Origin: a virus
Length of the DNA stretch: 29,670 nt
IMG/VR virus record: IMGVR_UViG_3300045988_131075
Span: 1 to 29,670 of that record
Direction: 5' to 3' (one strand)
Part shown: positions 6,428 through 29,645 of the stretch, piece after piece
Layout: each line of letters begins with the position of its first letter
Numbering within the stretch: the first letter of the stretch is position 1
Notes under the pieces: generated by a model
Databases searched by the model: none
Told to the model about the DNA's origin: nothing
The model's input: only the letters and a program-made list of their open reading frames with translations
Program-made: the position numbers and the translations under genes

Positions 6428-6432
6428 TTTTA

Positions 6433-7195: not shown

Positions 7196-7201
7196 AGACG
7201 T

Positions 7202-12334: not shown

Positions 12335-12455
12335 TTGACACAAAATTCCGGCCGCGCCTGGCGTGCACGGCCGGCCGATTATATCACCAAGTTTTGAAAT
12401 TGTCAATAGGCAAAATATACAAAAAAATCTCCCCATTTTTGGAGAGATTTTTAAT
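12335..12455. promoter_or_regulatory. Boundary module C6. It has a + TTGACA (12335-12340) abutting the hairpin ccggccg-N13-cggccgg (12348-12374) and a minus promoter (-10 rc ATTATA at 12378-12383 with TG, -35 rc at 12401-12406). The terminator is tctcccca-T5-ggagaga (12428-12447).
   Basis: Like C5, it lacks the + strand -10. Confidence 0.7.
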
Positions 12456-12498
12456 TCAAAAAATTTAATTTTAACCATCAACATAAATGATAAGAACA

Positions 12499-12711
12499 TC
12501 ATCTTTGGCTTTCAAACCGCTGACAGGCAAATCCCAGCACCCATTCTTCGCTTACGCCCAAAACATCACCATTCAGAGTCATGCGACCTTTGCGGTCTTT
12601 GAGATAGCGCCCGCAAGTGTTTTCATTTATCACTTCAATGCCGTTCCCCTCATAGAACATCAGTGCGCCTTTTACCAGACCAATCACATTTTTAACCATG
12701 CCCAAAGTCAT
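12499..12711 (-). CDS. Hypothetical protein of about 70 aa (MTLGMVKNVIGLVKGALMFYEGNGIEV...).
   Basis: AAAGAGG 8 nt upstream. Promoter TTGACT-17-TATACT. Ends 45 bp from the C6 terminator. Confidence 0.55.
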   Translation of the reverse strand: MTLGMVKNVIGLVKGALMFYEGNGIEVINENTCGRYLKDRKGRMTLNGDVLGVSEEWVLGFACQRFESQR

Positions 12712-12820
12712 TTTATCAACCTCTTTCGTTTTTAATGTCGTTCCCTTGGAACAATTATAGTATAGCACAAGGTGTAGCAAAAGTCAACTTAAATTTTGGG
12801 ATTACCAATAGATAAAATGT

Positions 12821-12867
12821 ATAAAAATTCGGCAGGATTTTGTGTATCCTGCCGAATTTTTTTTATT
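12821..12867. terminator. Bidirectional terminator ggcaggat-tttgtgt-atcctgcc followed by T8.
   Basis: Stem at 12831-12853, with A/T runs on both sides. Confidence 0.6.
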
Positions 12868-13057
12868 CTTCCCAACTTTCGATGACTTCGCCGGTCATTG
12901 CATCGATGATGTCAACCGAGAGGACGTTGTCTGCGTCCATGACCTTCTGCCCGAGGGCATATGCGTTTTCCTGTCCCGCGACAGACACTTCATAGCGATA
13001 GCGGTTGTTATCGCCAGCCTTGTAATTGTAGTAGTTGACAGAAACAATAAATGACAT
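12863..13057 (-). CDS. Hypothetical protein of 64 aa.
   Basis: RBS AAAGGGGA. Promoter TTGACA-16/17-TATAAT upstream (13090-13130). Confidence 0.6.
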   Translation of the reverse strand: MSFIVSVNYYNYKAGDNNRYRYEVSVAGQENAYALGQKVMDADNVLSVDIIDAMTGEVIESWEE

Positions 13058-13161
13058 TTGGCTTATCCCCTTTCTTTTTATACTCTTATTATACCATAGA
13101 TTCAGGATTTGTCAATAGGTTTTTGAAAAAAGTTTGAAAAAAAATAAGGGCGTTTCCGCCC

Positions 13162-13419
13162 TTATTCTTCATAAATAATAATATTATTTTGTAGCAGTTT
13201 CACGCGAGAATCTTCACAAAAGTGATAGGTAAAACTCACGGAGAGGTGTTTGAGAAATTCGCGTCTCCATGTGCGGGACTTCGGCTCTAATTCAAAGAGA
13301 ATGTAAAGCGTTTCTTCTAACCGGTCGAGGAAGTTTTCAGTGTCCGCGACGTTGAACTTACCCGCGAATTTCGGAATAGGATTAGAAGTCCCAACAGTAA
13401 TAATGTTGTAAGTTGTCAT
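13162..13419 (-). CDS. Hypothetical protein of 85 aa.
   Basis: Conserved leader plus AAGGAG 8 nt upstream. Promoter TTGACA-17-TATAAT (13440-13475 rc). Confidence 0.6.
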   Translation of the reverse strand: MTTYNIITVGTSNPIPKFAGKFNVADTENFLDRLEETLYILFELEPKSRTWRREFLKHLSVSFTYHFCEDSRVKLLQNNIIIYEE

Positions 13420-13506
13420 GGAAAAATCTCCTTTTCATTTGATGCTTTTATTATACATGATAGTGTGGAACTTGTCAATACTTAAAATAGAAAAAAGAGA
13501 AGTTTT

Positions 13507-13611
13507 TCAACTTCTCTTTTTCAGTTTCTTTTCTGCCCATTCAATGAGCGCACCCACGGCGATTGTACCGGTATAAATGAAAAGTAAAACTAAACCATCA
13601 TGTAGACTCAT
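13507..13611 (-). CDS. Alternative model, gene 2 of 2: a 34-aa single-TM peptide (MSLHDGLVLLFIYTGTIAVGALIEWAEKKLKKRS).
   Basis: GGAGG 9 nt upstream of the ATG. Same frame and stop as the ORF-track 76-aa ORF 13507..13737. Confidence 0.4.
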   Translation of the reverse strand: MSLHDGLVLLFIYTGTIAVGALIEWAEKKLKKRS

Positions 13612-13612
13612 T

Positions 13613-13741
13613 TTAATATTCCTCCACATACTCTGTAAAAACAAGCTCCCAGTCAGGGCCAAGATCCGGAGCTTTGCAGTATCGCGACTGTCGAATGTCA
13701 TGCTCATTAGTGATTTTGTTGATAAACTCGAATTCATACAT
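13613..13741 (-). CDS. Alternative model, gene 1 of 2: a 42-aa acidic protein (MYEFEFINKITNEHDIRQSRYCKAPDLGPDWELVFTEYVEEY).
   Basis: AAAGGAGA about 10 nt upstream of this ATG (14 nt for the ORF-track ATG in another frame). Its TAA is followed after 1 nt by the ATG of gene 2. Confidence 0.4.
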   Translation of the reverse strand: MYEFEFINKITNEHDIRQSRYCKAPDLGPDWELVFTEYVEEY

Positions 13742-13830
13742 TTTTTATTATCTCCTTTTCTTTACTGTACCAATAGTATAGCAGATAACAGGGTATTTGT
13801 CAATACCATTTATAAAAAAATGTACGAGGT

Positions 13831-14127
13831 TTAATCCTCGTACATTTCCATTAACGATTTGATTTTTTCGATTGTATTTTCAATTTCTTCTACATAGTCG
13901 GCCTGTTCCTCACTTGCGCGCATTGCCTGTTCATATGCGTCATAGATAGCTTCACACTGTTCGCGGGTGTAGTCTTCTTCTGGAGCGTGTTCCATGGTGA
14001 CGACTGCCGTCCAAGCGAGCGTTTCCTTATCGTCAAGGTCATCGGCTTTTTCCGTGGCAGTGGTAAGCTCATGTTCGAGGCGCGTCTTTTCGAGCGAGAG
14101 GGTCTTGAGAAAATCCTTGTTAGTCAT
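13831..14127 (-). CDS. Acidic coiled-coil protein of about 98 aa (MTNKDFLKTLSLEKTRLEHELTTATEKADDLDDKE...).
   Basis: The ORF-track start is the ATG inside the conserved leader (caaATGaaaaggaga). The real start is 8 codons downstream, after that RBS. Confidence 0.6.
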   Translation of the reverse strand: MTNKDFLKTLSLEKTRLEHELTTATEKADDLDDKETLAWTAVVTMEHAPEEDYTREQCEAIYDAYEQAMRASEEQADYVEEIENTIEKIKSLMEMYED

Positions 14128-14328
14128 TGCGGTGTATCTCCTTTTCATTTGATGCCTTTATCATACCACTTCTGGACTGAATGTCAATAGGTTTTTGAAA
14201 AAAATATTTATTCATCAGGGCTGTATAAATATTCATGTATAAATATTCATTTTCGGGTGTATAAAGGCGACTGGCATAATGCACAAAATGGTTTCAAAAT
14301 TTTTGTGCAATATAACTATTGCAAAACT

Positions 14329-14355
14329 CGGCGCGCTGCGACCCACAGCGCGCCG
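14329..14355. promoter_or_regulatory. Orphan copy (C7) of the module GC hairpin, cggcgcgc-N11-gcgcgccg. It has no associated promoter or terminator.
   Basis: Same stem as C5, with a different loop. Flanked by AT-rich tandem repeats. Confidence 0.55.
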
Positions 14356-14382
14356 GCCAAATGCATATGTATGATTATTCAT

Positions 14383-14440
14383 GTATATTCATTGTATATT
14401 CATTGTATATTCATTGTATATTCATTGTATATTTATTCAT
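14383..14440. repeat. Tandem 11-bp repeat gtatattcatt, 4 perfect copies plus a variant. A second pair of 14-bp repeats, tgtataaatattca x2, is at 14222-14249.
   Basis: Direct reading. Confidence 0.8.
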
Positions 14441-14450
14441 ACATAATATG

Positions 14451-14484
14451 CAAAAATAGAGAGAGACTTAATAAGCCTCTCTCC
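14451..14484 (-). terminator. Intrinsic terminator for the minus-strand operon: hairpin gagagag-N11-ctctctc, followed on the minus strand by a T-run.
   Basis: The stop codon of 14468..14830 lies in the hairpin loop. Confidence 0.55.
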
Positions 14485-14830
14485 ACACCTTGATTATTTC
14501 ATCATCTGCTATATCATCTGTGTCATTGTCGTTTATCCACAAAAGCAGAAAATCATTATCATCAATGGTCATATTCTCAACTTCCCATTGGTTGCCACGT
14601 TCGTCCAGTAGCGTGATGGTGTTACCATTTCGGGAAACGACCTCTGCACCGATAAAGCGTATGCTTCCTCTCTCTGTGCCAGCGCCACACCATTCATCTA
14701 ATGCGGTGAGGTCGTAGGACTGGGGCGCTTCCTCACAGGCTTCCGCGGTTGTGTGGTCGTGAAATCCGAAGAAAGACACGGAGAGAATGATGGCAATGGC
14801 CATGGTGATGATTTTGGAAACGTTTTTCAT
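14468..14830 (-). CDS. Secreted or membrane-anchored protein of 120 aa with an N-terminal signal/TM segment (MKNVSKIITMAIAIILSVSFFGF).
   Basis: AAGAGG 9 nt upstream of the ATG. Hydrophobic N-terminus followed by an acidic domain. Confidence 0.6.
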   Translation of the reverse strand: MKNVSKIITMAIAIILSVSFFGFHDHTTAEACEEAPQSYDLTALDEWCGAGTERGSIRFIGAEVVSRNGNTITLLDERGNQWEVENMTIDDNDFLLLWINDNDTDDIADDEIIKVWREAY

Positions 14831-14852
14831 TTTGTTTTACCTCTTTCTTACT

Positions 14853-14996
14853 TTATAGGTTAGTAGCGATAGTGACAACAGCAATAAGCATGAGCGTGCT
14901 TGAGACAGCTTTGCCTACATTCTTGCTATCTATGGCATAGACAAAATTATATGCGCTTATAGCGGTAAGCACAATAATAGCGGCAATGATAGACAT
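14853..14996 (-). CDS. 47-aa membrane peptide (MSIIAAIIVLTAISAYNFVYAIDSKNVGKAVSSTLMLIAVVTIATNL).
   Basis: GGGGAG 8 nt upstream of the ATG. Lies between two larger genes with about 25-bp spacers. Confidence 0.45.
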   Translation of the reverse strand: MSIIAAIIVLTAISAYNFVYAIDSKNVGKAVSSTLMLIAVVTIATNL

Positions 14997-15026
14997 GGCA
15001 TATGCTCCCCTCTTTGAGCGAGTGGG

Positions 15027-15500
15027 TTAAACCCACTCGCTGAATAGCTCACTGATGAAGTCATCGTGGACGTCATCAGGCAGTTGGTCGATGGTACACT
15101 CATAGGTGCTTACCACGGTAAGCGATGAGCCATTTTCAAGGTTCTCACGCTCAAACTTATCCCGTTCGCCAGATGAAAGAAAAAATGCGGTATAATCGTA
15201 AGTGTCTTCTCCATCATTGATGGAATAATCCACTACCTTAAAGCGCGTCTTGTTCCAGAGGTTCGCTATGATGGAAAGATCCATGGCCAGCTCTTCCTCG
15301 TGGCGAACAGCTTCGAGAGACGCCTTATACTTGCGCCATGCGGCTACCGTAAAGTCTCTTATGCCGCACCCGATAAGACAATGGTATTCCTCTAAGTCTT
15401 TGATAACCAGTTTGCGTCCCTCGCGCACCATTTCCCAAGCGTTTTCTGCCATTGCGTTGATGGTGACAGCATCATATTTATGCAAGCCCTGAATTTTCAT
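15027..15500 (-). CDS. Hypothetical protein of 157 aa.
   Basis: Long ORF in the operon and no overlapping alternative. Confidence 0.55.
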   Translation of the reverse strand: MKIQGLHKYDAVTINAMAENAWEMVREGRKLVIKDLEEYHCLIGCGIRDFTVAAWRKYKASLEAVRHEEELAMDLSIIANLWNKTRFKVVDYSINDGEDTYDYTAFFLSSGERDKFERENLENGSSLTVVSTYECTIDQLPDDVHDDFISELFSEWV

Positions 15501-15581
15501 TGTGTAGCCCTTCCCGCGCTTTTTGCGCTATCGTGTTATATGTAGGTATGTTCCCCTTGTGGGGAGTGAGGGCTTACGCCC

Positions 15582-15875
15582 TCACTTTGCAATCTTTGCA
15601 GTAACGGAAGCCGCACGCGGCGCGCCAGTCTTCTTGTACTTTTCAAAACACTCCGCATAGAGTTTCGGAGCTTTGTTGCGGAACATTACTGTATCGAGTG
15701 TTTCAGTAGCCTTGCCACCCTTGCCGACGATAACAGTAAACTTATTGTAAGTAAAAGTAACGCTTTCGCCGTCGGCTTCCTCGCGGGCTTCCGCCTTGAG
15801 CAATTCTAACTGTTCCTTGAGCGCATCTATCTGCGCGGAAAGCTCACACATCTTTTTAATTTTGTTGTTCGTCAT
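15582..15875 (-). CDS. Hypothetical protein of 97 aa with an N-terminal coiled coil (LSAQIDALKEQLELLKAEAREE).
   Basis: ORF. A weaker promoter (TTGTAT-17-TACCAT) upstream at about 15905-15945. Confidence 0.5.
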   Translation of the reverse strand: MTNNKIKKMCELSAQIDALKEQLELLKAEAREEADGESVTFTYNKFTVIVGKGGKATETLDTVMFRNKAPKLYAECFEKYKKTGAPRAASVTAKIAK

Positions 15876-15959
15876 TTTTGAATCCTCGTTTCATGTAATT
15901 TACCGTTCGGTGTTTCGCCGTTCAGCATGGTTACATGGTAGCAGATTCAGCCACGGAAT

Positions 15960-16280
15960 ACAATTGACGGATTGCACAAAGATTTGTTTTATACGGGGCG
16001 GGCTTTTGTGCAATCTACCGCCGGGCGGCACCCTTACATCATACCTTTGCATTTTTATTCATTCAAGAATGAATAAAACCTGCATAGAGGGGGGGTGTAT
16101 TTCGGGAAAAATAAATTTTTATTTATCGTTTTTTCTTTTGCCTGGTCAAAACGCAATCTAAATCAATTTTCAATTTCAGATTACGAAGAATAATTTAAAT
16201 TTATCATAATCAATTTTCAATTTCAAAATACGGTTTAAAACAATAAATCAATTTTCGATTTCAAATTACGACTTCTTTTT
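15960..16280. promoter_or_regulatory. Non-coding region between the two genome modules. It holds a perfect 11-bp inverted repeat gattgcacaaa/tttgtgcaatc (15970-15980 and 16005-16015), a 22-bp palindrome ttattcattc-aa-gaatgaataa (16055-16076) and a palindrome aaaaataaatttttattt. Three iterons aatcaattttc(a/g)atttcaNaWtacg lie at about 16160, 16209 and 16246.
   Basis: Direct reading. No ORF with an RBS apart from the small gene at 16266-16400. Confidence 0.6.
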
Positions 16281-16400
16281 TCTACCTCTTTTAGGCTTCT
16301 CACCCCACATAAGAGTGTATAATCCAGAAGTAGCAGAGTAAGTAGCCTTCTGCTGATACTTTTTAGCGACTGCCTTCAAGGGACTGAGTGGTTTCCGCAT
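16266..16400 (-). CDS. 44-aa basic peptide (MRKPLSPLKAVAKKYQQKATYSATSGLYTLMWGEKPKRGRKKKS).
   Basis: GGAGG 9 nt upstream of the ATG. TAA stop. Its 3' end overlaps the third iteron. Confidence 0.4.
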   Translation of the reverse strand: MRKPLSPLKAVAKKYQQKATYSATSGLYTLMWGEKPKRGRKKKS

Positions 16401-16424
16401 TTAATTTTTCCTCCATATATTCGA

Positions 16425-16745
16425 TTAATTTATCTTTATATTTACAACTATCAATATATCTATTAATAATTTTTCCATTAAGTGTTCTAATACATATTTG
16501 TATTTATTCAACTGATATTCTTCTTGTTCTTCTTTGGTGCTTAATTGAGCCTTTTCCGCGTCTGATAAAGGTCTGTAAGTAATCGTTCTTGACCCATTAT
16601 CCTTTTGCTCAATACGTATTGTTTTAAATAATTTCCAATCTCTTACAAAAGGGTCTTTATCTCTTGTAGTGTTAAAATATTCTTGTTCTAATCTAAATAT
16701 TACCGCGTCTATCCCTCTTACTTCAAAAGGCTGGTTCCATCCCAT
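16425..16745 (-). CDS. Hypothetical protein of about 106 aa (MGWNQPFEVRGIDAVIFRLEQEYFNTTRDKDPFVRDWKLF...).
   Basis: GGGAGG 9 nt before this ATG, inside the 3' end of the upstream gene. The ORF-track N-terminal extension has no RBS. Confidence 0.5.
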   Translation of the reverse strand: MGWNQPFEVRGIDAVIFRLEQEYFNTTRDKDPFVRDWKLFKTIRIEQKDNGSRTITYRPLSDAEKAQLSTKEEQEEYQLNKYKYVLEHLMEKLLIDILIVVNIKIN

Positions 16746-17115
16746 CTTCAATATCCTCCCATTCAAATGTTCCATCATCTAATTCATATACAAATGCTTG
16801 TTTATAAAATGATGAAACAATTCCATCATTTGCGATTCCTTTTGGACTATTTTTCACATCATGAAAACAATTATAAACAATTAATCCTTGCGTTTCATAT
16901 CGTGAAAAATCTACTGCCCTTCCCTCAAAATCATAATTATAAAATATGTTTAATAATAGCATACACTCATATTGTGCGATTGGCCATTTATTTAATTCTT
17001 TTTGCTAATTTACCATTTTTTGATATAATACCAAAAAGGCTTTTCTATATAACCATAAAAAAAGAAGTGATGCTACTAACGCACAACTCAATAATACAAT
17101 AAAAATAGTTTCCAT
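16723..17115 (-). CDS. N-terminally membrane-anchored protein. It is about 130 aa if the in-frame TAG at 17005-17007 is read as sense; otherwise it is a 36-aa TM peptide plus the ORF-track 79-aa ORF.
   Basis: GGAG 5 nt before the ATG at 17115. The ORF-track start at 16962 has no RBS. The two ORFs share a frame and are separated only by TAG. Confidence 0.45.
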
Positions 17116-17264: not shown

Positions 17265-17293
17265 TTGACAAAAAAAATTTTTTCGAGTATAAT
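17265..17293 (+). promoter_or_regulatory. Consensus promoter of the late (structural) operon: TTGACA(17265-17270)-17-TATAAT(17288-17293). GGAGG lies 6 nt before the ATG at 17318.
   Basis: Direct reading. An extremely AT-rich UP-like region lies upstream (17100-17260). Confidence 0.75.
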
Positions 17294-17317: not shown

Positions 17318-18373
17318 ATGATAAAACTTGATTATTCTTTACAAACTCCAGAAGAAAGAAATCAATTAGTCGAACAAATTTTGGCTGATAATCCAGATCC
17401 GCCTGAAAAGTATTTAGAAATTTTAGCAGACTATTTGGTTCTTTGTATGGAGAAACAAGAAAAAAAGGAGAAAAAATTATTAACTGATAATCGTATGGCT
17501 ACAGTTAATAAGCGTGAGACTTCTTTTGAAGGTCTTGTTTCCCAACTCGAAAATGGCGAAGATGGAATTTATAATTTAATTACAGATAATAGAAATACAA
17601 TATTTCAACCACATATTACAATTACAAAAAAAGATTTAGAAGAGATACCAAGTTTAAATTAGTTAAGAGAAGCCATTAATGTTTGGGAGGCTAAATTAAA
17701 AGTAACAGAAGGTAAAGATGCTTTTGTTATTAAAAAGGCTCTTATTGAAATGCGTAAAGATTAGTATGTTATGAAAAATGCTTATCGTCGTCCAATAGTG
17801 CCTACAAAATTAACCAGATCAAAGTCTTATATTCCATTAGATGATAAAACATTTATTTTTGATGATGATGGTTTTCCCATTCCTGATGGAATTAGTTTAT
17901 TAAGACCTGAAATATGTTCTGCGGTTTTATGTAATTATTCCCGATTAAAACAAGATAGTTGGGGCGAATATGATAAAGATTTATGGTATTTAATGGAGGA
18001 TTTTGATAAGCTTTGTGATAAAGCGTTAGCTAATTATCCTCTTTATGATAGAATCGTTGAATATAAAATTGATGGTTTACAAAATATTGACATTCAAGAG
18101 AAAATACAAATGGAATTTGGTATTAAGCACAGCCTTGAATATATTTCAAGTTTATGGCGTAATAAAATTCCAAAATTAATTGCTTCGACTGCGGAAGATG
18201 AATATTTAGATAATTATTATTTAAATGTTGAAAAAGGTAAATATAAAAAATGTAGTCGTTGTGGTAAAATAAAATTAGCTCATAATAAATATTTTAGTAA
18301 AAATAAAACAAGTAAAGATGGCTTTTATAGTATTTGTAAAAGTTGTCGAAATTCTAAGGTCAAAAAATCTTAA
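17318..18373 (+). CDS. First late gene, about 351 aa with 2 in-frame TAG codons (at 17660 and 17762). It has a C-terminal Zn-ribbon, CSRCG...AHNKY...CKSCRN, possibly an HNH-like nuclease or a regulator.
   Basis: ORF-track ORFs 17318..17662 and 17771..18373 are in the same frame and are separated only by TAG codons. TAA stop. Confidence 0.55.
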
Positions 18374-18422
18374 TATTGTCTTTTTGTTTATAATAAATAG
18401 TTGAAAGGAGAATATTTTATTT

Positions 18423-19610
18423 ATGGCTGAAACATATTATTGCGAAAAATGTAATCGTACAATGAATAGCACGGAATTTTATTCGTCTAATAATTTAGAA
18501 AAATATCCTAATGATGGTAAATTTCCTGTGTGCAAAAAATGTATGACAATGCACGTCGATAATTGGAATCCAGATACTTATTTATGGATTTTACAAGAAG
18601 CGGATGTTCCTTATGTTCCAGATGAATGGAATAAATTAATGGAAAAATATGGGCGCGATCCGCAGTCTATGACTGGTATGACAATTCTTGGACGTTATTT
18701 GTCAAAAATGAAACTCAAATAGTTTAAAGATTATCGTTGGAAAGATACAGAATTTTTATAGTAGATGGCGAATAATAAATTAGAGCAAACTATGAAGCGT
18801 CAAGGATATGATGCTCAATAGATTGCAACCGCTATTGAAAAAAGTTCTATTGCTATTCCAGGAGGAGAATTAAAAGAACCGGTTTATGCTCCACCACCTA
18901 ATGCCCCTACGGAAGATTATTTCGCACAATAGAGTGGTAAAGTGGAACAAGAATTAGACTTAACTGATGAAGACCGCACTTACTTAAGACTTAAATGGGG
19001 TAAAACTTATAAACCTGAAGAATGGGTTAAGCTTGAATAGTTATATGAAGAAATGATGGCTTCTTATGATATTCAAGGCGCCGGACATAAAGATACGCTA
19101 AAATTAATATGTAAGACATCTTTAAAGGCAAATCAATTGATCGATATTGGTGATATTGAAGGTTTCCAAAAGATGAGCAAAGTATACGATAGCTTAATGA
19201 AGTCTGGTAAATTTACTGCTGCTCAAAACAAAGCAGAATCAGGTGAATTTGTTGATTCAATTGGTGAATTAATTGAATTGTGTGAAAAAGAAGGATATAT
19301 TGAAAGATATTATGTTGAATAGCCACATGATAAAGTGGATTTAACTATTCAAGATATGCAACGTTATACTCGTACTCTTATTGAAGATGAAACTAATATT
19401 AGCACAATGGTAGAAAAAGCTTTACGCGAAAATGCTAAAGAAGATGAAGAGAAAGCAAAGAACGCGGAAAGCGATATCGTTGATGATGCTGATTTAAGTA
19501 TTGAAGAACTTGAAAAAACTATTAAAGATAGTGATTACGCGGATTTTGAGGAATTTAAAGAATAGGAGTCCGCGCAAGATAATGAGTTCTTATAGAGTTT
19601 GGATAAATAA
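18423..19610 (+). CDS. Late protein of about 395 aa with about 8 in-frame TAG codons and an N-terminal CxxC...CxxC Zn-ribbon. Its position immediately upstream of terL suggests the small terminase subunit; this is speculative.
   Basis: ORF-track pieces 18423..18722, 19053..19322 and 19335..19565 share one frame. Only TAG separates them. Ends with TAA at 19608-19610. Confidence 0.55.
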
Positions 19611-21349
19611 TGGCATTACAAGATTTGTTATAGTTAAGTGATAGCCGTAGAAAAATAGGTCTATCACCTGAGCGAGTAGAAGCGGTAATGCCTACTATCC
19701 GCAAATACGTTGCCTTTTGGAGAGAATATCCTGATTTATTTGTAGATTTTATGGTGCGAGGAAGACGCACTGAAATAAAAGATGGAGAATTTAATTTTTA
19801 TTTTTATTAGAGAGTATTTCTCCGTTCTGTTATGCGTTATTAGTATGTTTACGCGGTTTTCCCTCGTGCTTATTCTAAATCATTCTTGTCTGTTATGGCA
19901 TTAATGATTAGATGTATTTTATATCCTGGTGCGCACTTGTTCGTTACTTCTGGAGGTAAAGAGCAAGGTGCTAGTATTCTTCATGATAAAGTTCAAGAAA
20001 TATGTGAACTTGTTCCAAGCTTTAATCGAGAAATTGATTGGAGTCGAGGAAAAACTCTTGAAGGAAAAGATAAAGTTAGATATGTGTTTAAAAATGGTTC
20101 AGTTTTGGATAACCTCGCAGCTCGTGAAAGCACTCGTGGTCAGCGTCGTCATGGTGGATTAATGGAAGAATGTGTCGGTATTGATGATACTATTCTTCGT
20201 GAAGTTATTATTCCTGTTATGGCAATTTCTCGTAGAGCTAAAGATGGCACTACCAATGAACAAGAGCCATTAAATAAATCACAAATTTATATTACTACTG
20301 CTGGTTATAAGGGCACATTCCCTTATGATAGACTTATTGGTTTCTTAGTTCGTATGGTGACTTAGCCCGATCGTTGTATGGTATTAGGCGGAACATGGCG
20401 AACTCCTGTTGCAGTAGGATTACAAAGTAAAACATTTATTACTGACCAAAAGAATGAAGGAACTTATAATGAAGCTTCATTCGAACGTGAATATGAATCT
20501 AAGTGGTCAGGAACTGTTGAGGATGCTTTCTTTAATGGAGAGCATTTTGATAGAAATAGAAAACTATTATAGCCTGAATATGAAGCTTCTGGGCGCGCGG
20601 GCGCACAAGCTTATTATGTGCTTTCTGTAGATGTAGGTCGTAAAGGATGCGATTCAGTAGTTTGTGTATTTAAAGTAACACCACAAGCTCAAGGTCCAGC
20701 TATTAAATCATTAGTAAATATGTATACTATGTCAGATGACCATTTTGAAGATTAGGCTATTAAATTAAAGAAATTATTTTATAAATATAAAGCTAAAACT
20801 TTAGTTATAGATGGTAATGGTTTAGGTATTGGACTTTTAGATTATATGGTAAAATCTCAAAATGATGAAGATGGTGAATTTTTACCTGATTTTGGTGTTG
20901 AGAATGATGATGATGGATATTATAAAAAATATCGCACACCAAATACTCAATTTGATGCTATGTATGTTATTAAAGCAAATGCTCCAATAAATACTGAATG
21001 TCATGCTAATGCTCAGACTCAATTGCAAGCGGGTAAAGTAAAATTCTTAATAGATGAGAGAACAGCTAAAGAAAAATTATTAGCTACTCAAAAAGGTTCA
21101 AAAATGACTTCTGAACAAAGGGCAGATTATTTAAAACCATTTACTTTAACCTCCATATTAAAAGAAGAAATGATGAATTTACGCGAAGAAAATGAAGGTA
21201 TTAATATTATCCTAAAACAGGCAAATCGCGGAATTCGTAAAGATAAATTTTCGGCTTTTGAATATGGATTATATTATTTAAAACTTGAAGAAGATAAAAA
21301 GAAAAAACGTAAAAAGTTTAATGCGGCTGATTGGTGCTTTTTAAATTAA
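19610..21349 (+). CDS. terL: Terminase large subunit, about 579 aa with at least 6 in-frame TAG codons.
   Basis: ATPase motifs PRAYSKSF (Walker A-like) and GLMEECVGID (Walker B). Nuclease motifs YVLSVDVGRKGCDSVVCVFK and LVIDGNGLGIG. The pieces 19886..20365, 20378..20572 and 20846..21349 are in the same frame. The start overlaps the upstream TAA (TAATG). Confidence 0.8.
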
Positions 21350-21361
21350 GGAGGGTGGAAA

Positions 21362-21718
21362 ATGCGTGCTTCAAGAGGAGAAATTAAAATTGAAGAAATC
21401 TTAGAAGAAGCAGGACTACCTTTTAAAATGGAATATATCTTTCCAGATTTAAAAAGCCCAAGCGGGCGTCCGCTTCGTTTTGATTTTGTTATATTTGATG
21501 ATGATGGAAAAATTGATTTCATTATTGAGTATTAGGGAAAATAGCATTATGAAGCCAGTTCTAAATTTGGTGGAAAACGCGGTTTATACCAATAGCAATA
21601 TAATGATAATCAAAAAAGACGTTTTTGCGCTTTACATGATTTTAGATTAATAGAGATTCCATATACCGACGAAAACCTTATTTCTTATGATTATATAATG
21701 AAATTAGCAGGTTATTAA
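21362..21718 (+). CDS. DUF559/Vsr-like (PD-(D/E)xK) endonuclease of about 118 aa with 3 in-frame TAG codons.
   Basis: RFDFVIFDDDGKIDFIIEYQGKQHYE matches the hDF...hIEhDGxQH signature. GGAGG 7 nt before the ATG. TAA stop. Confidence 0.45.
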
Positions 21719-21731
21719 AGGAGGTGGAACT

Positions 21732-23381
21732 TTGGATACGCAAGATCGTAATGATTAGATTCACGCTAAAGGTTTTGATATTTATAATAGTCGTTATGAA
21801 TATAATTATAATGACACTATGGATTATGCCAATAGAAAAATAAAAGTTGGCACAAAAACTTTAGATGATGCTATTTTAAAACTTGGTGATTATAGTAAGA
21901 TTAGATACCCAGGTCAAACTCGTATTATCACGAAACCTGATGTGCTTCGCGCACTAGCAGAAAGAGATTTAAATGCTTTGCGATATATTTCTAATCTTTA
22001 TTATGATATAAGTGGTGTATATCAACGAGTTTGTAATTATGTTGCTTTTTTATACCGCTATGATTGGTATATTGCAGCTGAAACTTATGATGATAATGTA
22101 AAAGAAGAAAAAGTTTTAAAAGATTTTTATAGAATGTTGAATTATTTTGATAATAGTTATATTAAAAAGATTTGCGGAGATATTGCTTTACAAGTCGTTA
22201 AAAATGGATGCTATTATGGATATATAGTTCCTTCAGAGAAAAATCTAATTTTACAAGAATTGCCAGTTAGATATTGTAGAACACGTTATAGTGTAAATAA
22301 TACCCCAGTTGTCGAATTTGATATGCGATTTTTTGATACTTTTAGAGATATGAATTACCGTTTAAAAGTATTAAAATTATTCCCAGAAGAATTTGCTAAA
22401 GGTTATGTTTTATATAAGCAAGGAAAACTTGCTTTAGATGATGCGGTTGGATGCTAGCATACTGGTAGTTGGTATGTTCTTGAGCCAGAAAATTGTATTA
22501 AATTTAATATTAATAATAGTGATGTTCCTATTTTTGTAAATTCCATTCCTACTATTATGGATTTAGATGCAGCGCAAGATCTTGACCGCAAGAAACAAAT
22601 GTAGAAGTTGCTTAAAATTTTAGTCCAAAAACTCCCAATGGATAAAAATGGTGATTTGATATTTGATGTTGATGAAGCCAGAGATATCCATAATAATGCC
22701 GTTTAGATGTTATAGAGGGCTATTGGAGTAGATGTTTTAACTACATTTACTGATGTAGATTCTATTGATATGTCTGATAAAAATACTACTACAACGACAG
22801 ATGATTTAGCTAAAGTTGAACGTAGTGTTTATAATTCATTAGGTATTTCATAGAATTTATTTAATACTGATGGTAATATGGCTTTAGAAAAATCAGTGTT
22901 AAATGATGAATCTACAATAAGAAGTTTAATTTTATAGTTTAATATATTCTTTAATAGAATTATTGAAAAAAAGAGTAGTAATAAGAAATATAATTTTAGA
23001 TTTTATTTATTAGAAACTACTTAGAATAATTATCAAACACTTTCTAAAATGTATAAAGAACAAGCGCAAATGGGACAATCAAAGCTATTGTCTTAGATTG
23101 CTCTTGGACATTCATAGAGTTTTATTCTTAATGCAGCTCATTTTGAAAATGAGATTTTACATTTAAGTGAAATTATGATTCCTCCTCTTATGAGTTCTAC
23201 TATGGGTAGTGAAGATATTTTGGGTTTAAAAGATTCATCATCTAATAATAAAACTCAAAATAATTCAGGAAGTTCAGGTTCTGGAACTGCTAAAACTTCT
23301 AATGGCGAGGCAGGACGTCCGGAAAAACCTGATGATTAGAAAAGTGAAAAAACTATTCAAAATAAAGAAGCAATGAAATAA
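21732..23381 (+). CDS. Portal protein, about 549 aa with about 12 in-frame TAG codons. It probably starts at TTG, 7 nt after an AAAGGAGG.
   Basis: One continuous frame from 21732 to the TAA at 23379, with no TAA or TGA inside. The position after terL and the size fit a portal. The ORF-track sees only 21819..22457. Confidence 0.55.
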
Positions 23382-23390
23382 GGAGGATTT

Positions 23391-24968
23391 ATGAAACATA
23401 CAAGTATTAAATTAAATACACCTTGTGAGTTTATAAATATAACTCCTGTAAATCCTTTAATTTCTAAATGCCAAATTAAGGTTTGTTATGTAGATGATAA
23501 GCCTAATCGTAATAAAAGCGTAATTACTAAAGATGTAGCGACTGAGATGGCTAATAGTCTTCCAGGCAGTCCTATTGTTGGCTTTTTTAACGAAAATACC
23601 GAAGATTTTGAAGAACATAATAGGATAATTGAATTATCTAACGGCGAATTTAGAATGAGAGATAATACTCGCCCTTATGGTTTTGTTGATCTTGGAGCTA
23701 AAGTTTGGTTTTAGAAATTTTTGGATGATGGTGTTGCTGAACGTGAGTATTTAATGACTGAAGGTTATTTGTGGACTGGTTAGTATCCTGAATGTAAACG
23801 TGTAGTTGAGAAAGGGAATAATCATTCTATGGAGCTTGATGAAAAAACATTAAATGCTACGTGGGCAAAAGATAGTAATGGAAAGCCTTAGTTTTTTATT
23901 ATAAATAAGGCAATTATTTCTAAACTTTGTATTTTGGGAGAAGAAAATGAACCTTGTTTCGAAGGCTCCCAAATCAATGTGAATTTTTCATTCGATGATG
24001 GTTTTAAGAACACTTTGTTCTCCATGATGAATGAACTTAAAGAATTTATGAAAGAAGGAGGAGCCAAAGTGTTTACACAATACGCTGTTAATATTGGCGA
24101 CAATTTGTGGAATTCTCTTTATTCTTATATTGAGAATAAGTATCCTGTCGAACCAAAGAATTATTGTTCTGTTTATCGCATTGAAGGTGTTTGCGAAGAT
24201 GGTGAACAAAAGTTTGCTGTTTTGAAGAATAAACAGGATGAAAAATACTATCGTATGGATTTTTCTCTTGAAGCAGAGAATTTCGTTCCTTCTGATACTT
24301 TGATTGAAGTAACTGATTATGCTCCTGCGGCAGAGCCTCAGTTTGCTCTTAATGCTGTAGAAGAATTTGAAAATGAGTATGCTTCAAAAAAGAAAGCAGA
24401 AGAGGACAAAAATAATAAATCAAATAATCCTGACGGTGAAAATAAATCAGAGGGCAATGATAATAAAAAGAACCCTGATAATGGAGAACCCTCTAATAAG
24501 TCTGATAAAGGCGACAACGGTGAGAATGATGATGATAAAAAGAAAAAGAAAAATTATTCTCTTGAGGACGTTGTTGAATATACTGAACTTAAAGCTCAGT
24601 ATGATGAATTACAGACTAAATTCGCAGCTCTTGAAACTGAAAATAATAGCTTGAAAGAGCAAATTGCTCCACTTGCTGAATTTAAAAATGCTGCTGAGAA
24701 GAAAGATAAAGAAGATATGATTGCTAAATTCTATATGCTTTCTGATGAAGATAAGGCTGATGTTGTTGAAAATATTGATAAATATTCTCTTGATGATATT
24801 GAAGCTAAATTATCTGTTATTTGTGTTCGCAACAAGGTGAGTTTCGACCTTGACGAAAATAATAAGCCCAATGGTGCTACTACTTTTAATTTGAACGATA
24901 ATGGTTCAGAAGATGATGATATGCCCGCTTGGGTGAAGGCGGCTTTTGCTACCGCCAACAAAAATTAA
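23391..24968 (+). CDS. Scaffold-like protein of about 525 aa with 3 in-frame TAG codons. It has a globular N-terminal domain, then a coiled-coil and a highly charged K/D/E/N-rich C-terminal half.
   Basis: ORF-track pieces 23391..23714 and 23934..24968 are in the same frame. GGAGG RBS. Position between portal and capsid genes. Confidence 0.5.
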
Positions 24969-24985: not shown

Positions 24986-25903
24986 ATGTTTAAAGACTTT
25001 TTGAATAAGAATCTTCCTATTAAGTCTCAGGCAAAGTATGTTGAGTTTGGTTACGGTCAGGTCGAGCCTAATCACCTTTCCGCACAAAGAAATGCTCAAA
25101 TCTATGCTCAACTTCCTGCCAATAAAGACATTGAGATTCTTGAAAACGGTCAGTTTGTAAAGTATGACTATGCTGCTAATGGTAATGGTATCGGCGAAGT
25201 CAACTTCACTGGCGAAGGCGAATGGATGCTCGTTTATAACGAGATTAAGCTTTATCGTGATCATTATGATGGCAGTAAGCAGTGGGATTGCGAATTTGCT
25301 ATGATTAAAGATGACTATCAGGCTCGTGTTTATAGCCCTTATGATTGGGAGCATACCGAGGTTGAATATGGTGGTCGTTTCTGGAACGGCGTTGATGAAA
25401 AGGGTCAAACCTATAAGTTAATCAATTAGACTGTTTCCGCAGATCAGGGCTTAAAGACTGTAACTATTGCTGGTCGTGTTTATGATGTCGATGAAGCCGG
25501 CAAGTTTACTTATGATGGTAATGACTATACTCTTGATAATAATCATCAGGTTGCTAATGTTCCTGTAAAGTATTACTATGATAAGCTTCTTACTGATGTT
25601 CCTGATATGTATGAAATGAATTGGACTAATGATCCATATCATAAGTTAGGTATCTATCATGAGAAGTTCATGGAATCTGGCACTTCTATGGTTCCTCGTG
25701 TATTTAAGACCATGATTGGTGATCTTTATACTACTAATATGATTAATGAAGAGACTCTTGCTGTTGGAGATAAGCTTTCTCCTTCTGCTGCTACAAAGGG
25801 TATTCTTAGCAAAACTGGCGACGATTCAATGACCTGGCAGGTTGTTAAGGTTTATACTATGCCTGATGGTCAAAAGGGCGTCAAGGTAATGCGTATTAAG
25901 TAA
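24986..25903 (+). CDS. Structural protein of about 305 aa (1 in-frame TAG), possibly a head decoration or minor capsid protein.
   Basis: AAGGAGG 8 nt before the ATG. The pieces 24986..25429 and 25607..25903 are in the same frame. Confidence 0.5.
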
Positions 25904-25920
25904 GAAAGGAGAAAAGGATA

Positions 25921-27027
25921 ATGTTAGATAAAAATAATTTAATTGCTCTTATGAAGCAAGTTGCTAAGGCTGATCCTTCTGCTCCTGTTGCTTATAGTTA
26001 TGAGGGAAAAAATCTTAGTTATGAAGCCTTAAATGAAACTCTTCGTAATGAAATGAATGAGTTGGCTGGTACTTACGCTCTTTATCGTGAAAATAAGAAT
26101 CTTATTTTCTCTATGATTGAGCAGACTCTTGATGAGGTTCTTCCTAAGAAAGTTATTCAGCAATATGATCAGTTTGCTGAGGTTAAAACTTTCGCTCAGG
26201 GTGATAAGCCTATTTTCCGTCGTCCTCTTAATAATCGTGCTCGTGCTAAGCAGTTTGTAACTCGCGTTGGTCTTGCTGGTATTTATGAAGTCTTCAAGCT
26301 CGGACCTAAAGAGAATGAAGCCTTTGAGGTACGTACTAGCGCTATCGGCGGAGCTGCTCAGATTGGCTTCGAAGAGTTCCTTGATGGTCGTGTTGATTTC
26401 GGTGAAGTAACCAAGATCATCATGGATGGTATGGATGAACTTATTTATAAAGAAGTTGCTGCCGCTCTTAGATCTTCTATCAATCAGCTTCCTCCTGCTA
26501 ACCGCGTTGCGGCTGCCGGATTTGATGAAGCTGCTATGGATCGTTTGATCACTATTGCTTCTGCTTATGGTACTCCTACCATTTATTGTACTTATGAGTT
26601 CGCTGTTAAGATGATTCCTCATGAGGCTTGGAGATATACTGAAGCTATGAAGAACGAGCTTTGGAATAATGGTCGTCTTGCTACTTACAAGGGCACTAAG
26701 GTTATTATTCTTGAGCAGGGCTTTGAAGATGAAACCAATACTCGTAAGGTTATTGATCCTGGTTATGCTTGGGTTATTCCTACGGGCGCTGATGGTAAGC
26801 CTGTAAAGATTGCTTTCGAAGGTGGCACTATTGTTGACGAGTTCAATAATTATGATCGTTCTCGTGAGATTCAGGTTTACAAGAAGGTTGGCGTAGTTTG
26901 TATGCTTGCTAATAACATCTGTGCTTATGTTGATACTTCACTTCTCGGTCAGATGTATACTTGGAATTATGATGGAGTTACCGGTAAGGTTATCACTTAT
27001 GATGGTCGCCTTGATGGTACTGTCTAA
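25921..27027 (+). CDS. Putative major capsid protein, 368 aa, with no TAG codons.
   Basis: Uninterrupted ORF with RBS AAGGAGAAAAGG and a TAA stop, followed immediately by a strong terminator. Position after the scaffold gene. Function inferred from gene order and size only. Confidence 0.55.
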   Translation: MLDKNNLIALMKQVAKADPSAPVAYSYEGKNLSYEALNETLRNEMNELAGTYALYRENKNLIFSMIEQTLDEVLPKKVIQQYDQFAEVKTFAQGDKPIFRRPLNNRARAKQFVTRVGLAGIYEVFKLGPKENEAFEVRTSAIGGAAQIGFEEFLDGRVDFGEVTKIIMDGMDELIYKEVAAALRSSINQLPPANRVAAAGFDEAAMDRLITIASAYGTPTIYCTYEFAVKMIPHEAWRYTEAMKNELWNNGRLATYKGTKVIILEQGFEDETNTRKVIDPGYAWVIPTGADGKPVKIAFEGGTIVDEFNNYDRSREIQVYKKVGVVCMLANNICAYVDTSLLGQMYTWNYDGVTGKVITYDGRLDGTV

Positions 27028-27045
27028 TTTAATATAAATTATTCC

Positions 27046-27090
27046 ATGGGGAGAAGGGATTAAACTCCCTCTCCCCATATTTTTGTTTTA
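27046..27090 (+). terminator. Intrinsic terminator after the capsid gene: hairpin ggggagaaggga-ttaaac-tccctctcccc, then a T-rich run atatttttgtttta.
   Basis: Direct reading. Confidence 0.7.
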
Positions 27091-27113
27091 TGAGTAAAAG
27101 GAGAAATTGAATA

Positions 27114-27707
27114 ATGATTAATAATGAAGATATTTATAATGTAAAAAATAGAAGCACTAGTGTAGTTGTTTATACTATTCCTGATACTAATTTGCGTCGT
27201 GAATTTGCGCCTGGTGAAACTAAGCGTATTCCATTTGGTGAGCTAGAGAAATTAACTTATCAGGCAGGCGGCCGCGAATTAATTGCTAATTTTTTACAAA
27301 TTTTAGAGCCAGAAGTAACTCATACTCTTAATGTTCATACTGAACCTGAATATAATATGTCAGAGCAACAAGTTGCTGATTTAATTCTTAATGGCTCATT
27401 AGATGCTTTCTTAGATGCTCTTGATTTTGCTCCTATTGGAATTATTGACTTAATCAAGAATTTATCTGTTAACCTTCCTATTACTGATATTAATAAGCGT
27501 AGAGCTTTGAAGGAAAAAACTGGGTTTGATGTTGATAAAGCTATTGCTAATGATATCGCTAGTAAAGAAGAAGATACTATCGTAGAGAAAGAACCGGCAG
27601 CTAAGCGTCGTGTAGTAAGAGAAGAACCTACTACTCAAGGTCGTCGTACAAGCGGTTCTGGATATAAAGTAATTAATAAAACCGAGGAAACTTCCTCCAA
27701 GAAATAA
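27114..27707 (+). CDS. Structural or head-associated protein of 197 aa with a basic C-terminal tail.
   Basis: Uninterrupted ORF with RBS AAAGGAGA and a TAA stop. Confidence 0.55.
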   Translation: MINNEDIYNVKNRSTSVVVYTIPDTNLRREFAPGETKRIPFGELEKLTYQAGGRELIANFLQILEPEVTHTLNVHTEPEYNMSEQQVADLILNGSLDAFLDALDFAPIGIIDLIKNLSVNLPITDINKRRALKEKTGFDVDKAIANDIASKEEDTIVEKEPAAKRRVVREEPTTQGRRTSGSGYKVINKTEETSSKK

Positions 27708-27726: not shown

Positions 27727-28299
27727 GTGGGAACATTATTCTCAACTGTTTATAATCGCTTTCTAAACAAGGTTACTGATGATATGTATCTGGAATTGAC
27801 TCCTGAAGATACTCTAAGAGATTTATAGAATCTTATAATAGATGCTATTCCTGGATTTGAATTTCCGCGAAAAAATCTTTTAGATTATAATTTAGATGTC
27901 GCTACTATTAATGAATCTGACGCTATGCCGGATGATTTTATTGTAGGAACAGTATGGGGGGAACTTCCAGAACCGGGTGAAGAACCTCAAGTTTTAGTTG
28001 ATAGATCCAGTTTTAATTGTGATCTAACTGAAGAAGAAATTAATATTTTAGCTATTTTAATGATGTGCGGTTGGACGCAAAGACAAGTCACTTCAATTGA
28101 GAATACTCGAATGAAATATAGTGGCTCTGATTTTAAATTTACTTCTTAGGCAAATCATCTATCAAAGCTATTGAATTTATTAGGTGAATGCCAAAGACAA
28201 TCTCACCATATGTAGCGTTTATATAAACGCAGACGTTTAAATAATAAAGGTGAGTATGAATCTAATTGGGATGTATTTAAAAGTCGATATGATTACTAA
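27727..28299 (+). CDS. Head-tail adaptor or connector-like protein of about 190 aa with 3 in-frame TAG codons. GTG start.
   Basis: AGGAGG 8 nt before the GTG. ORF-track 27925..28149 is its in-frame middle part. TAA at 28297. Confidence 0.45.
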
Positions 28300-28597
28300 A
28301 TATAATTTTGATATTCCAATAGAGAGTATAAAAGTAAATTGTTTGCGCTTAACCAATCAATTATGGAAATTAATTCCAATGCGCGAAAATAATGAAGATT
28401 GGCATAAATAGCTAGAAACTGTTATAAATGAAATTGTGGGGTTTAGTGTGATTTTTAACGCTGAACCCCTTTATTTATAGTTATTAAATAAACTTGAGGG
28501 ATTGTAGAATCAAGATACTGATTTTAATTTTTATCGTAAGACTGTGTTTGAAACGATTAGTCTTTTATAGGAGATAAATTATGGCGTCAGGGTTTGA
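28289..28597 (+). CDS. Possible small late protein of about 102 aa with 4 in-frame TAG codons. It overlaps both neighbours.
   Basis: It is the only stop-free frame (under TAG read-through) filling the 280-bp gap. No clear RBS. Confidence 0.3.
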
Positions 28598-29645
28598 TTA
28601 TAGTAGTAAGCAACCTTTTAGATTATAGCAAGGTCGCTTAGGAATTTATGATAAGCCACCCTTTAAAGGTAGCCCTGTTGAAGGCGTTAATTATATGGCG
28701 GTTCGGCTCGGTCAGATGGGCGGAAATCGCCAACAAGAGCGTATGATTTTATCTAAGCGTAGAAGTTTAGATAGAGCAGTATGGAATTCATACCAAGCCG
28801 CAGAAATTATTAAATAGGATGCGGAATATAAAAAACCTATTAGGTGTTTGATTAATCCTAACAAATTGAAATAGGATTATGATGATAAGATTTTGTCTGT
28901 TGGAAATGAATATTAGTTTAAACCAGGAGATATTTTTGAATGGTGTGGAACTAATACCTATTGGATTTGTTATCTTTAGGATTTGACTGAATTAGCTTAT
29001 TTTAGAGGAGATATTAGAAAATGCTCTTATAAAATAAATTGGGTAGATGAGGGAGAGAAAAAGTCTACTTATGCAGCAATTCGCGGTCCTGTAGAAACGA
29101 AAATTAATTATATTCAAAAACATGAAATTAGTGTAGATATTCCTAATTATTCATTAAATATTTTGATGCCTAAGAATAAAGATACTTTGAGTTATTTTAA
29201 GCGGTATACAAAATTTTATTTAGATAGTTAGGATGATGGAGATAATTTAATTTGTTGGCGTGTTGAAGCTGTAGATTCTATAAGTATGCCTGGTATTTTA
29301 GAAGTCAATGCGACTGAATATTATATTAATGAGTAGGAAGATAATTTAAATGATAAGACTGTTGGTTCTTTAATTGCGGAACCGATTGATCCGAATCCTA
29401 CGACAACTGATATTATAGGAGAAACATTTATCTTTCCAAAGAAAAGTTATACTTATTATTTTGATGGTGAAGTTGTTTTAGAATGGAGCATAAAGAATAA
29501 TAAGAAGTTGCCGGTTTCTTTAAAAATTATTAAAGAAGCAAAAAAACCAACAGTTGAAATAAGTTGGACTTCTGGATATAGCGGATAGTTCGATTTATTA
29601 TATGGAGATTATAAAAAAACGATAATTGTTCAATCATTGTTTTAA
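28581..29645 (+). CDS. Late structural protein of about 354 aa with about 10 in-frame TAG codons.
   Basis: GGAG 7 nt before the ATG. ORF-track 28983..29231 is an in-frame internal piece. A single frame is free of TAA and TGA up to the TAA at 29643. Confidence 0.5.

Follow-up and report, generated by a model that had tools for sequence, protein, structure and literature searches.

The stretch of virus DNA described here, referred to as the window, comprises 29,670 nucleotides (nt), positions 1 to 29,670 of IMG/VR record IMGVR_UViG_3300045988_131075. Its plus strand between positions 17318 and 29645 is fragmented under the standard genetic code; when TAG is read as a sense codon, the same region becomes a contiguous late operon of 12 genes. 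Within this operon, the open reading frame (ORF) at 25921-27027 encodes the predicted major capsid protein of 368 amino acids (aa). As an earlier note made from the window's letters had stated, this ORF contains no in-frame TAG and ends in TAA, with a stem terminator behind it; a U-rich tail follows the stem. Comparative data make the depletion of TAG in the capsid gene robust beyond chance, and they place the gene in a small TAG-depleted class in which it is not unique. The window probably spans the boundary between early and late genes in an SPbeta-like human gut phage of roughly 190 kilobases (kb), with the late operon in genetic code 15; contigs that carry homologues of its capsid protein are about 190-200 kb long.

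Sequence comparison indicates that TAG is read as glutamine (Gln, Q) in the late module, the assignment of code 15. The 81 related loci divide into 62 that are recoded and 19 in the standard code. The 49 sense TAG sites of the window align with Q in 576 of 882 alignment cells from the 19 standard-code relatives. Late genes in the window stop at TAA (11 genes) or TGA (one gene) and never at TAG, and the same holds over 27 recoded lineages, with 342 TAA, 48 TGA, and no TAG stops. Conserved essential genes, including those for the terminase (six TAG codons) and the portal (ten), are full-length only if TAG is read through, as is also the case in the 62 recoded loci. The base that follows a sense TAG shows a modest shift relative to the base that follows CAA (C, 0.18 versus 0.11; T, 0.20 versus 0.24). 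This shift goes toward weaker termination contexts; it carries little weight, as the data are not phylogenetically independent.

The standard-code relatives (L026-L028, L030-L038, L040, L057-L060, L062, and L063) have capsid proteins that are 81-88% identical to that of the window, indicating that the code has switched over short evolutionary distances within the clade. The portal alignment of the L026 group holds a single TAG, which may be a gene-boundary effect.

The predicted structure, sequence homology, and gene order together confirm the ORF at 25921-27027 as an HK97-fold major capsid protein, which bears out the assignment made in the earlier note. An AlphaFold2 model built from a 74-sequence alignment of 50%-identity cluster representatives reaches a mean predicted local distance difference test score (pLDDT) of 87.2 and a predicted template modeling (TM) score of 0.82; a shallower alignment of 31 sequences at 87-100% identity gave a pLDDT of only 40. 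The fold search that followed, using Foldseek against the PDB, returns 344 matches with an expect value (E) of at most 0.001, and each of the best 50 is an HK97-fold phage capsid or an encapsulin, with E values from 5.7e-9. Against BFVD, the best matches are capsid proteins of uncultured siphoviruses (E 4.5e-21, TM score 0.73). Searches with tblastn recover Phass-1 at 50% identity, EF1-group Enterococcus phages at 39.5%, and the Bacillus phages PJN02, Kirov, and Thrax2/3 at 24-26% (E 1e-6 to 1e-11), where the homologue is annotated as the major capsid protein. Precomputed Pfam annotation assigns capsid homologues to PF27364 (YonB). The window's own capsid protein has no match in the local Pfam copy, neither the single protein nor a profile finds a sequence match in the PDB, and the protein falls in PHROG 4088, a family of unknown function. 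Its position also fits: the gene follows those for the terminase, portal, a YonD-like protein, and a 305-aa protein, and precedes YomW, YomV, and tube genes. This is the order of the SPbeta module from yonG to yomU, and it is kept in all 81 related loci.

Within the window, the capsid gene encodes glutamine with 2 CAA and 10 CAG codons and no TAG. A 197-aa gene downstream of it also lacks TAG (four CAA, one CAG), and the 305-aa gene immediately upstream contains one TAG, five CAA, and eight CAG codons. The nine other late genes, which form the TAG-using comparison set, carry 2-10 TAG each and together contain 48 TAG, 75 CAA, and 9 CAG codons, so that TAG makes up about 36% of their Gln-type codons and CAG is nearly absent. 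About five TAG codons would be expected in the capsid gene from its length, which gives a Poisson probability of 0.004-0.007 for observing none. Set against a background TAG share of 0.32-0.36, 0 of 12 Gln-type codons has a binomial P of 0.004-0.009 and a Fisher P of 0.019. With 12 genes tested, the depletion seen in the window alone is borderline and only suggestive.

The earlier note had described the capsid gene as the only long late gene without TAG, with neighbors that carry 1-12 TAG each, including a single TAG in the 305-aa gene. The last point is correct, and that gene is open only when its TAG is read through. Eight late ORFs in the window reach 300 aa or more, and every one except the capsid gene does contain TAG. 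The wider form of the claim does not hold, since the 197-aa gene is also TAG-free, as is the tail tube gene of the window's closest relative, L008 (97.8% DNA identity). In L008, the 350-aa tube gene and a 193-aa YomW-like gene, located just past the position at which the window ends, each have no TAG, and the tape-measure gene has 37 TAG in its first 994 codons. Actual counts among the neighbors are 0-10 per gene, and 12 is obtained only if the portal ORF is taken to start at 21702.

The evidence that carries the depletion comes from late orthologues of 18 gene families in the 62 recoded loci, dereplicated at 95% DNA identity of the capsid gene to 27 lineages. Across these lineages, TAG accounts for 6 of 371 Gln-type codons in the capsid gene (share 0.016), and 22 of the 27 lineages have none. 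The 305-aa gene behaves in the same way (7 of 383, share 0.018; zero TAG in 21 of 27 lineages), as does the tail tube gene (6 of 221, share 0.027; zero in 19 of 22), and the 197-aa gene is less strongly depleted (18 of 185, share 0.097; zero in 19 of 27). The TAG share of 13 other late families is 0.19-0.51, with 0.42 in the tape measure's N-terminal part and 0.51 in YomV. The capsid, 305-aa, and tube genes thus show a roughly 20-fold depletion of TAG. Retained CAG alone cannot explain this depletion, because the ratio TAG/(TAG+CAA) is also low in these three genes (0.05-0.07, versus 0.26-0.55 elsewhere). The per-gene count therefore upholds the capsid depletion proposed in the earlier note and shows that other genes share it.

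Codon alignments indicate how TAG comes and goes. All six TAG columns in the capsid gene are confined to a single lineage each and fall at different codons. TAG columns number 50-67 in the portal, terminase, and 354-aa genes, and many of them are common to up to 13-21 lineages. Every capsid column with a conserved Q mixes CAA and CAG, which implies ample synonymous turnover at these sites. The cluster that contains the window (at least 95% identity) has 16 genomes, of which 3 carry a lone TAG in the capsid gene, never at the same codon; the window has CAG at two of these three positions, consistent with single C-to-T transitions. Together, these codon patterns support a reading in which selection against TAG, rather than shared ancestry or base composition, would account for the depletion.

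TAG avoidance is accompanied by a general codon bias in the same genes. Relative to the remaining late genes of the window, the capsid and 305-aa genes make more use of AAG for lysine (0.80 versus 0.23), CTT for leucine (0.72 versus 0.21), CGT for arginine (0.76 versus 0.38), CCT for proline (0.96 versus 0.51), and TTC for phenylalanine (0.52 versus 0.17), and they never use ATA for isoleucine (0 versus 0.18). Over 17 families pooled across the 27 lineages, TAG use runs inverse to this bias, with Spearman coefficients of -0.89 for CTT/Leu and -0.73 for AAG/Lys. The same genes are also enriched in CAG, CTT, and CGT in standard-code relatives, so this bias is independent of recoding. The most economical reading of these codon data is that TAG avoidance would be one component of a general high-expression codon bias in three or four genes.

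The capsid gene is thus likely to be TAG-free as a member of a set of highly translated virion genes under strong translational selection, together with the 305-aa and tube genes and, more weakly, the 197-aa gene. High expression of the capsid, 305-aa, and tube genes is presumed from their structural roles. Their optimized codon set would consist of CAG, AAG, CTT, CGT, CCT, GCT, and TTC without ATA, and TAG would be a strongly disfavored Gln codon. New TAG codons would keep arising, mostly by CAG-to-TAG transitions, and would be purged from highly translated genes; in low-copy late genes, such as those for the portal, terminase, and tape measure, they could drift to high frequency or be favored. 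The presumed cost is that a suppressor tRNA competes with release factor 1 at each sense TAG, which would make the yield of full-length protein lower and its synthesis slower with every TAG, and this cost would scale with the amount of protein made. The earlier note had proposed that selection keeps the most abundant protein independent of suppressor efficiency. In its general form, this proposal agrees with the roughly 20-fold depletion over 27 lineages; the capsid as a special case does not stand, as it is one of three or four such genes.

Several observations weigh against this account. Zero TAG is not strict, as 5 of the 27 lineages carry one or two TAG codons in the capsid gene, and the lineages are kin, so pooled counts are not independent events. 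A suppressor tRNA was not found in the window or within 10 kb on either side of the capsid gene in 20 relatives, a span to be read against a genome of roughly 190 kb. The preference for AAG in these genes is 0.62-0.74 in recoded phages (27 lineages) and 0.26-0.29 in standard-code phages (four lineages), a difference that simple shared translational selection leaves unexplained and that could reflect different hosts or phage tRNA sets. Capsid genes of crAss-like phages do carry in-frame TAG, and in-frame stops in terminase, capsid, and portal genes marked recoding in that group (PMC7886860); capsid depletion is therefore not general to recoded phages. One tail gene family of crAss-like phages is, in addition, preferentially recoded (bioRxiv 10.1101/2021.08.26.457843).

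A gene's count of in-frame TAG codons may also act as a multiplicative translational attenuator that sets virion stoichiometry within a single co-transcribed late operon, although this is a doubtful possibility. If read-through at each TAG had an efficiency s below 1, yield would scale as s^n for a gene with n TAG codons. The counts are n = 0 for capsid and tube, about 3 for the YonD-like scaffold candidate, about 10 for the portal, and at least 37 for the tape measure. Virions of tailed phages contain hundreds of copies of the capsid and tube proteins, 12 of the portal, and a few of the tape measure, and TAG densities run in the same direction as these generally needed copy numbers. If attenuation of this kind occurs, terminators after the capsid and tube genes would add a transcriptional layer, and recoding would serve to control dosage in addition to timing.

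Four further explanations have been considered for the same pattern. In the published model for recoded phages (bioRxiv 10.1101/2021.08.26.457843), TAG codons block translation of late and lytic genes until the code switches, and the capsid and tube genes would then be exempt to allow earlier or independent synthesis. The early genes of the window have no sense TAG, and the sigma-like gene that heads the late operon has two, as this model would predict. However, the capsid gene shares its operon with TAG-rich portal and YonD-like partners. It lies only 17 nt from the 305-aa gene, too short a gap for a promoter, and so has no promoter of its own; early capsid synthesis would thus bring no obvious benefit. 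The depletion is also graded with codon bias across 17 families rather than all-or-none, and these genes show their codon bias even in standard-code relatives, where no such gate exists. An exemption from timing control is therefore unlikely. A passive, compositional origin, in which the capsid, 305-aa, and tube genes keep G- or C-ending codons for other reasons and are low in TAG as a by-product, fits their G+C content at third codon positions (GC3), which is 0.27-0.34 versus about 0.2, their CAG fraction of about 70%, and the CAG richness of the same genes in standard-code relatives. It is nevertheless improbable, because CAG is one transition away from TAG, so that CAG-rich genes have the largest supply of new TAG codons and yet contain the fewest. 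The ratio TAG/(TAG+CAA) is 0.05 versus about 0.36 elsewhere, TAG codons do arise in the capsid gene and remain restricted to single lineages, and most of the preferred codons (CTT, CGT, CCT, GCT) end in T, which is not simply a higher GC content.

Recent horizontal acquisition of a capsid cassette from a standard-code phage is less probable still. The region 24986-27027 has a GC content of 0.39-0.40, versus 0.28-0.34 in neighboring genes, and relatives with and without recoding coexist at 78-90% identity in the capsid protein; these two points favor such a transfer. Against it stand the SPbeta gene order common to all 81 loci and the presence of the signature in all 27 recoded lineages, including in the tube gene, which starts about 5 kb past the capsid stop codon. 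A single transfer also cannot explain a lasting absence of TAG while neighboring genes turn their TAG sites over. Chance, with one TAG-free gene arising among twelve, would have to draw on the window-only binomial P, which precedes any correction for 12 genes; it has a negligible probability and is already refuted by the 27-lineage capsid count and by two further genes that are equally depleted. Translational selection on a set of highly expressed virion genes remains the favored explanation.

The hairpin that follows the capsid gene is a real-looking, conserved intrinsic terminator or attenuator, judged by its sequence and predicted folding, and would end or reduce transcription at this site. 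It sits in the 86-nt gap at 27028-27113, begins 19 nt past the TAA, and continues into an A-UUUUUGUUUU tail at 27079-27089. With 13 pairs (9 + 4) and a single bulged A, the stem is longer than the 11 base pairs given in the earlier note; 8 of the 13 pairs are G-C. A 71-nt stretch containing the hairpin has a minimum free energy of -23.2 kcal/mol, a centroid energy of -19.5, and a z-score of -3.45. A consensus terminator scan misses the hairpin owing to its bulge, and a custom scan for a hairpin plus T-tract was used instead. In that scan it ranks first on the plus strand of the late module (-22.5 kcal/mol), followed by a hairpin at 28438-28470 (-20.7). The description of this terminator as the strongest is thus accurate for the plus strand of the late module in the window and does not extend beyond it, since early-region terminators are equal or stronger (-25.6 at 1739 and -25.2 at 11891), as is a hairpin before the tape-measure gene of L008 (-25.4). 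About 77 of 80 related loci, all standard-code relatives among them, have an equivalent hairpin with a T-rich tail 3' of the capsid gene. Stem variants among them keep their pairing (GGGGAGAAGAGA/TCTCTTCTCCCC, AGGGAGAGGGA/TCCCTCTCCCT, and GGGGAGACGGGG/CCCCTCTCCCC).

Equal conservation in standard-code relatives identifies the terminator as an old feature of the module that is unrelated to recoding, and a link between the two, as the earlier note implied, is not supported. The hairpin would thus predate recoding and be independent of it. Its proposed role in setting the ratio of capsid to accessory proteins would hold in part. A terminator at this site can lower the expression of downstream genes: it would end or thin late transcripts, so that later genes receive less mRNA, with a second such site after the tube gene, and a 3' hairpin may also stabilize capsid-proximal mRNA. 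It cannot explain an excess of capsid over portal or terminase, because no promoter separates the capsid gene from those upstream genes. Any such difference must come from translation or mRNA stability, the level at which codon bias, and possibly TAG count, would act.

The T-phi terminator of phage T7 lies downstream of the major capsid gene 10, and the present hairpin resembles it, and more broadly the intrinsic terminators behind capsid genes of tailed phages, as a strong hairpin and U-tract directly after a capsid gene inside a long late transcription unit. Because the genes downstream must still be expressed, partial termination and a higher mRNA dosage for the capsid are implied. Unlike T-phi, the element is presumably read by host RNA polymerase with a phage sigma-like factor rather than by a T7-type polymerase, and it is accompanied by a second conserved terminator after the tube gene and a third before the tape-measure gene. 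In L008, these strong terminators are located at 16300-16347 and 18060-18101, with equivalents in L001, L041, and L026; in some lineages the terminator after the tube gene follows a small ORF. The terminators split the late operon into head, connector-plus-tube, and tail-assembly blocks.

Two other features of the late-module hairpins are of note. The hairpin at 28438-28470 on the plus strand lies inside the ORF at 28256-28597 and consists of 12 pairs with a T-rich tract. A hairpin with a T-tract occurs at the matching gene position in most of 31 lineages, with differing stem sequences, which suggests that an internal attenuator or RNA structure is itself conserved and is not a side effect of conserving the protein. 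In L050 and L076, the gap between the capsid gene and the 197-aa orthologue is about 490-514 nt, versus the usual 86-126 nt or so, and no strong terminator is found within 160 nt of the capsid stop codon. An insertion behind the capsid gene may account for the longer gap in both lineages.

Phage codon-usage landscapes have been surveyed generally, and the bias described here resembles the host-adapted bias of other phage structural genes, capsid genes above all, in that abundant virion proteins use a distinct, optimized set of codons in a manner graded with presumed expression. Codon optimization of capsid genes and a terminator behind them are well known from T7 gene 10 and T-phi (PMC5592923, PMC6938266), and codon deoptimization of T7 gene 10 lowers the yield of capsid protein (PMC5592923). 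Unlike T7-type codon bias, the disfavored set here includes a reassigned stop codon, for which the likely penalty is premature termination and not only slow decoding. Apart from TAG avoidance, the capsid gene and its terminator are ordinary, and the finding is a modest extension of known codon-bias biology.

Late genes in code 15 have been described in several groups of gut phages, including crAss-like, Lak, Garnet, Amethyst, Topaz, and Phass-1 (bioRxiv 10.1101/2021.08.26.457843; PMC7886860; PMC9523058; PMC10607447). The present phage resembles them in reading TAG as Gln only in the late structural module, in having early genes in the standard code and standard-code kin, and in the absence of TAG stops from late genes. 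Prior work on recoded phages has concentrated on TAG-enriched genes, interpreting recoding as a switch that times late and lysis genes. Borges et al. tested for families enriched in the recoded codon, finding lysis genes and one crAss tail gene, and did not report depleted families (bioRxiv 10.1101/2021.08.26.457843). In the literature searched, no explicit prior description of TAG avoidance in abundant virion proteins was found; coverage was limited, and novelty is unproven.

A clade-wide depletion of about 20-fold, together with recurrent single-lineage TAG gains that do not spread, is a sign that reading TAG as Gln carries a real cost. If so, suppression would work less efficiently than normal decoding, and this cost would be visible to selection in proportion to expression level. 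TAG depletion thereby offers a simple, sequence-derived comparative measure of suppression cost, and protein dosage might be tuned through TAG density. In practice, gene calling with the standard code yields correct capsid and tube genes and breaks up the genes around them, which may mislead annotation and code-detection pipelines that rely on marker genes.

Phass-1 is the closest named relative by capsid protein. Its published list of TAG-containing genes names the terminase and tape measure, and the capsid is absent from that list without comment (PMC10607447). Annotated Phass-1 genes within 20 kb on either side of the capsid gene contain no in-frame TAG, which makes this phage uninformative as an independent replicate lineage. 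All 15 tabulated coding sequences upstream of its head module end in TAG (L082, OQ749652.1, record positions 18103-59092); these may be calls truncated at a sense TAG or genes with genuine TAG stops.

The features of the late operon are collected in Table 1. Like the SPbeta morphogenesis module (yonG-yonF-yonE-yonD-yonC-yonB-yonA-yomZ...yomU), with which its gene order is identical, the operon encodes YonG-, YonD-, and YonB-type proteins. In the 190-kb Hadza gut contig L001, precomputed Pfam families run in SPbeta order, and its orthologues carry YonG_N, YonD_N, YonB, YomW, YomV_2nd, YomU_Tube, and PhageMin_Tail. Identity of the capsid protein to its counterparts in SPbeta-like phages of Bacillus, Staphylococcus, and Mammaliicoccus is low, at about 22-27%, and the present phage further differs from SPbeta in its genome of about 190-200 kb, its TAG recoding, and an HNH endonuclease gene between terminase and portal. 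A megablast of the late module against GenBank phages yields zero matches, and an Rfam search gives none.

Table 1. Genes and regulatory features of the late region of the window.
Feature	Position	Strand	Description or basis	Sense TAG codons
Sigma-like factor	17318-18373	+	PHROG 5767, E 9e-55	2
YonG-like protein	18423-19610	+	PHROG match	9
Large terminase	19610-21349	+	PHROG match	6
HNH/homing endonuclease	21362-21718	+	PHROG match	3 in 118 codons
Portal	21819-23381	+	PHROG match	10 (12 if the ORF is read from 21702)
YonD-like gene	within 17318-24968	+	Pfam name from relative L001	3
305-aa gene	24986-25903	+	SPbeta yonC position; open only with TAG as sense	1
Shine-Dalgarno sequence AAAGGAG	25905-25911	+	9 nt 5' of the capsid ATG	
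Major capsid gene, 368 aa	25921-27027	+	ATG start, TAA stop; predicted HK97 fold, Pfam YonB family	0
Putative terminator stem-loop	27046-27078	+	13 pairs (9 + 4), one bulged A, 6-nt loop	
Putative terminator U-rich tail	27079-27089	+	A-TTTTTGTTTT, read from the sequence	
197-aa gene	27114-27707	+	SPbeta yonA position	0 in the window
Downstream late genes (TAG-using comparison set)	27727-29645	+	190 aa; 113 aa; 354 aa	3; 4; 8

The TAG-using comparison set comprises the last row of the table and the upstream late genes at 17318-24968. The 305-aa protein has no Pfam or PDB sequence match, and its C-terminus matches PHROG 35301, a family of unknown function. Its gene has a GC3 of 0.34 and is predicted, from its codon usage and low TAG content, to encode an abundant head protein.

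Virtually all of the 81 related loci, whether recoded or in the standard code, have the HNH endonuclease gene between terminase and portal, and its TAG density over the 27 lineages, 2.07 per 100 codons, is among the higher values. A perfect (12/12) sigma-70 consensus promoter lies at 17265-17293 on the plus strand, directly 5' of the sigma-like gene that heads the late operon. As this gene contains two sense TAG codons, synthesis of the late sigma factor may itself depend on TAG suppression.

The early region (1-17000) consists of dense, small, standard-code genes on the minus strand, with a GC content of 0.40-0.52, versus about 0.31 in the late module. Its genes stop at TGA (17), TAA (17), and TAG (1). 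Each is preceded by a TTGACA-N17-TATAAT-like promoter unit and a ribosome-binding site, with strong hairpin terminators flanking. The possibility that this left half is differently recoded or non-coding was rejected, as ORFs stay short under every stop-codon reassignment and small standard-code genes are present. Repeat families recur in the early region at a spacing of about 2.2-2.4 kb, and some of its cassettes are paralogous, such as 2270-2634 and 4680-5044, with 74-89% identity. An AbrB/SpoVT-like protein is encoded at 8452-8904 on the minus strand.

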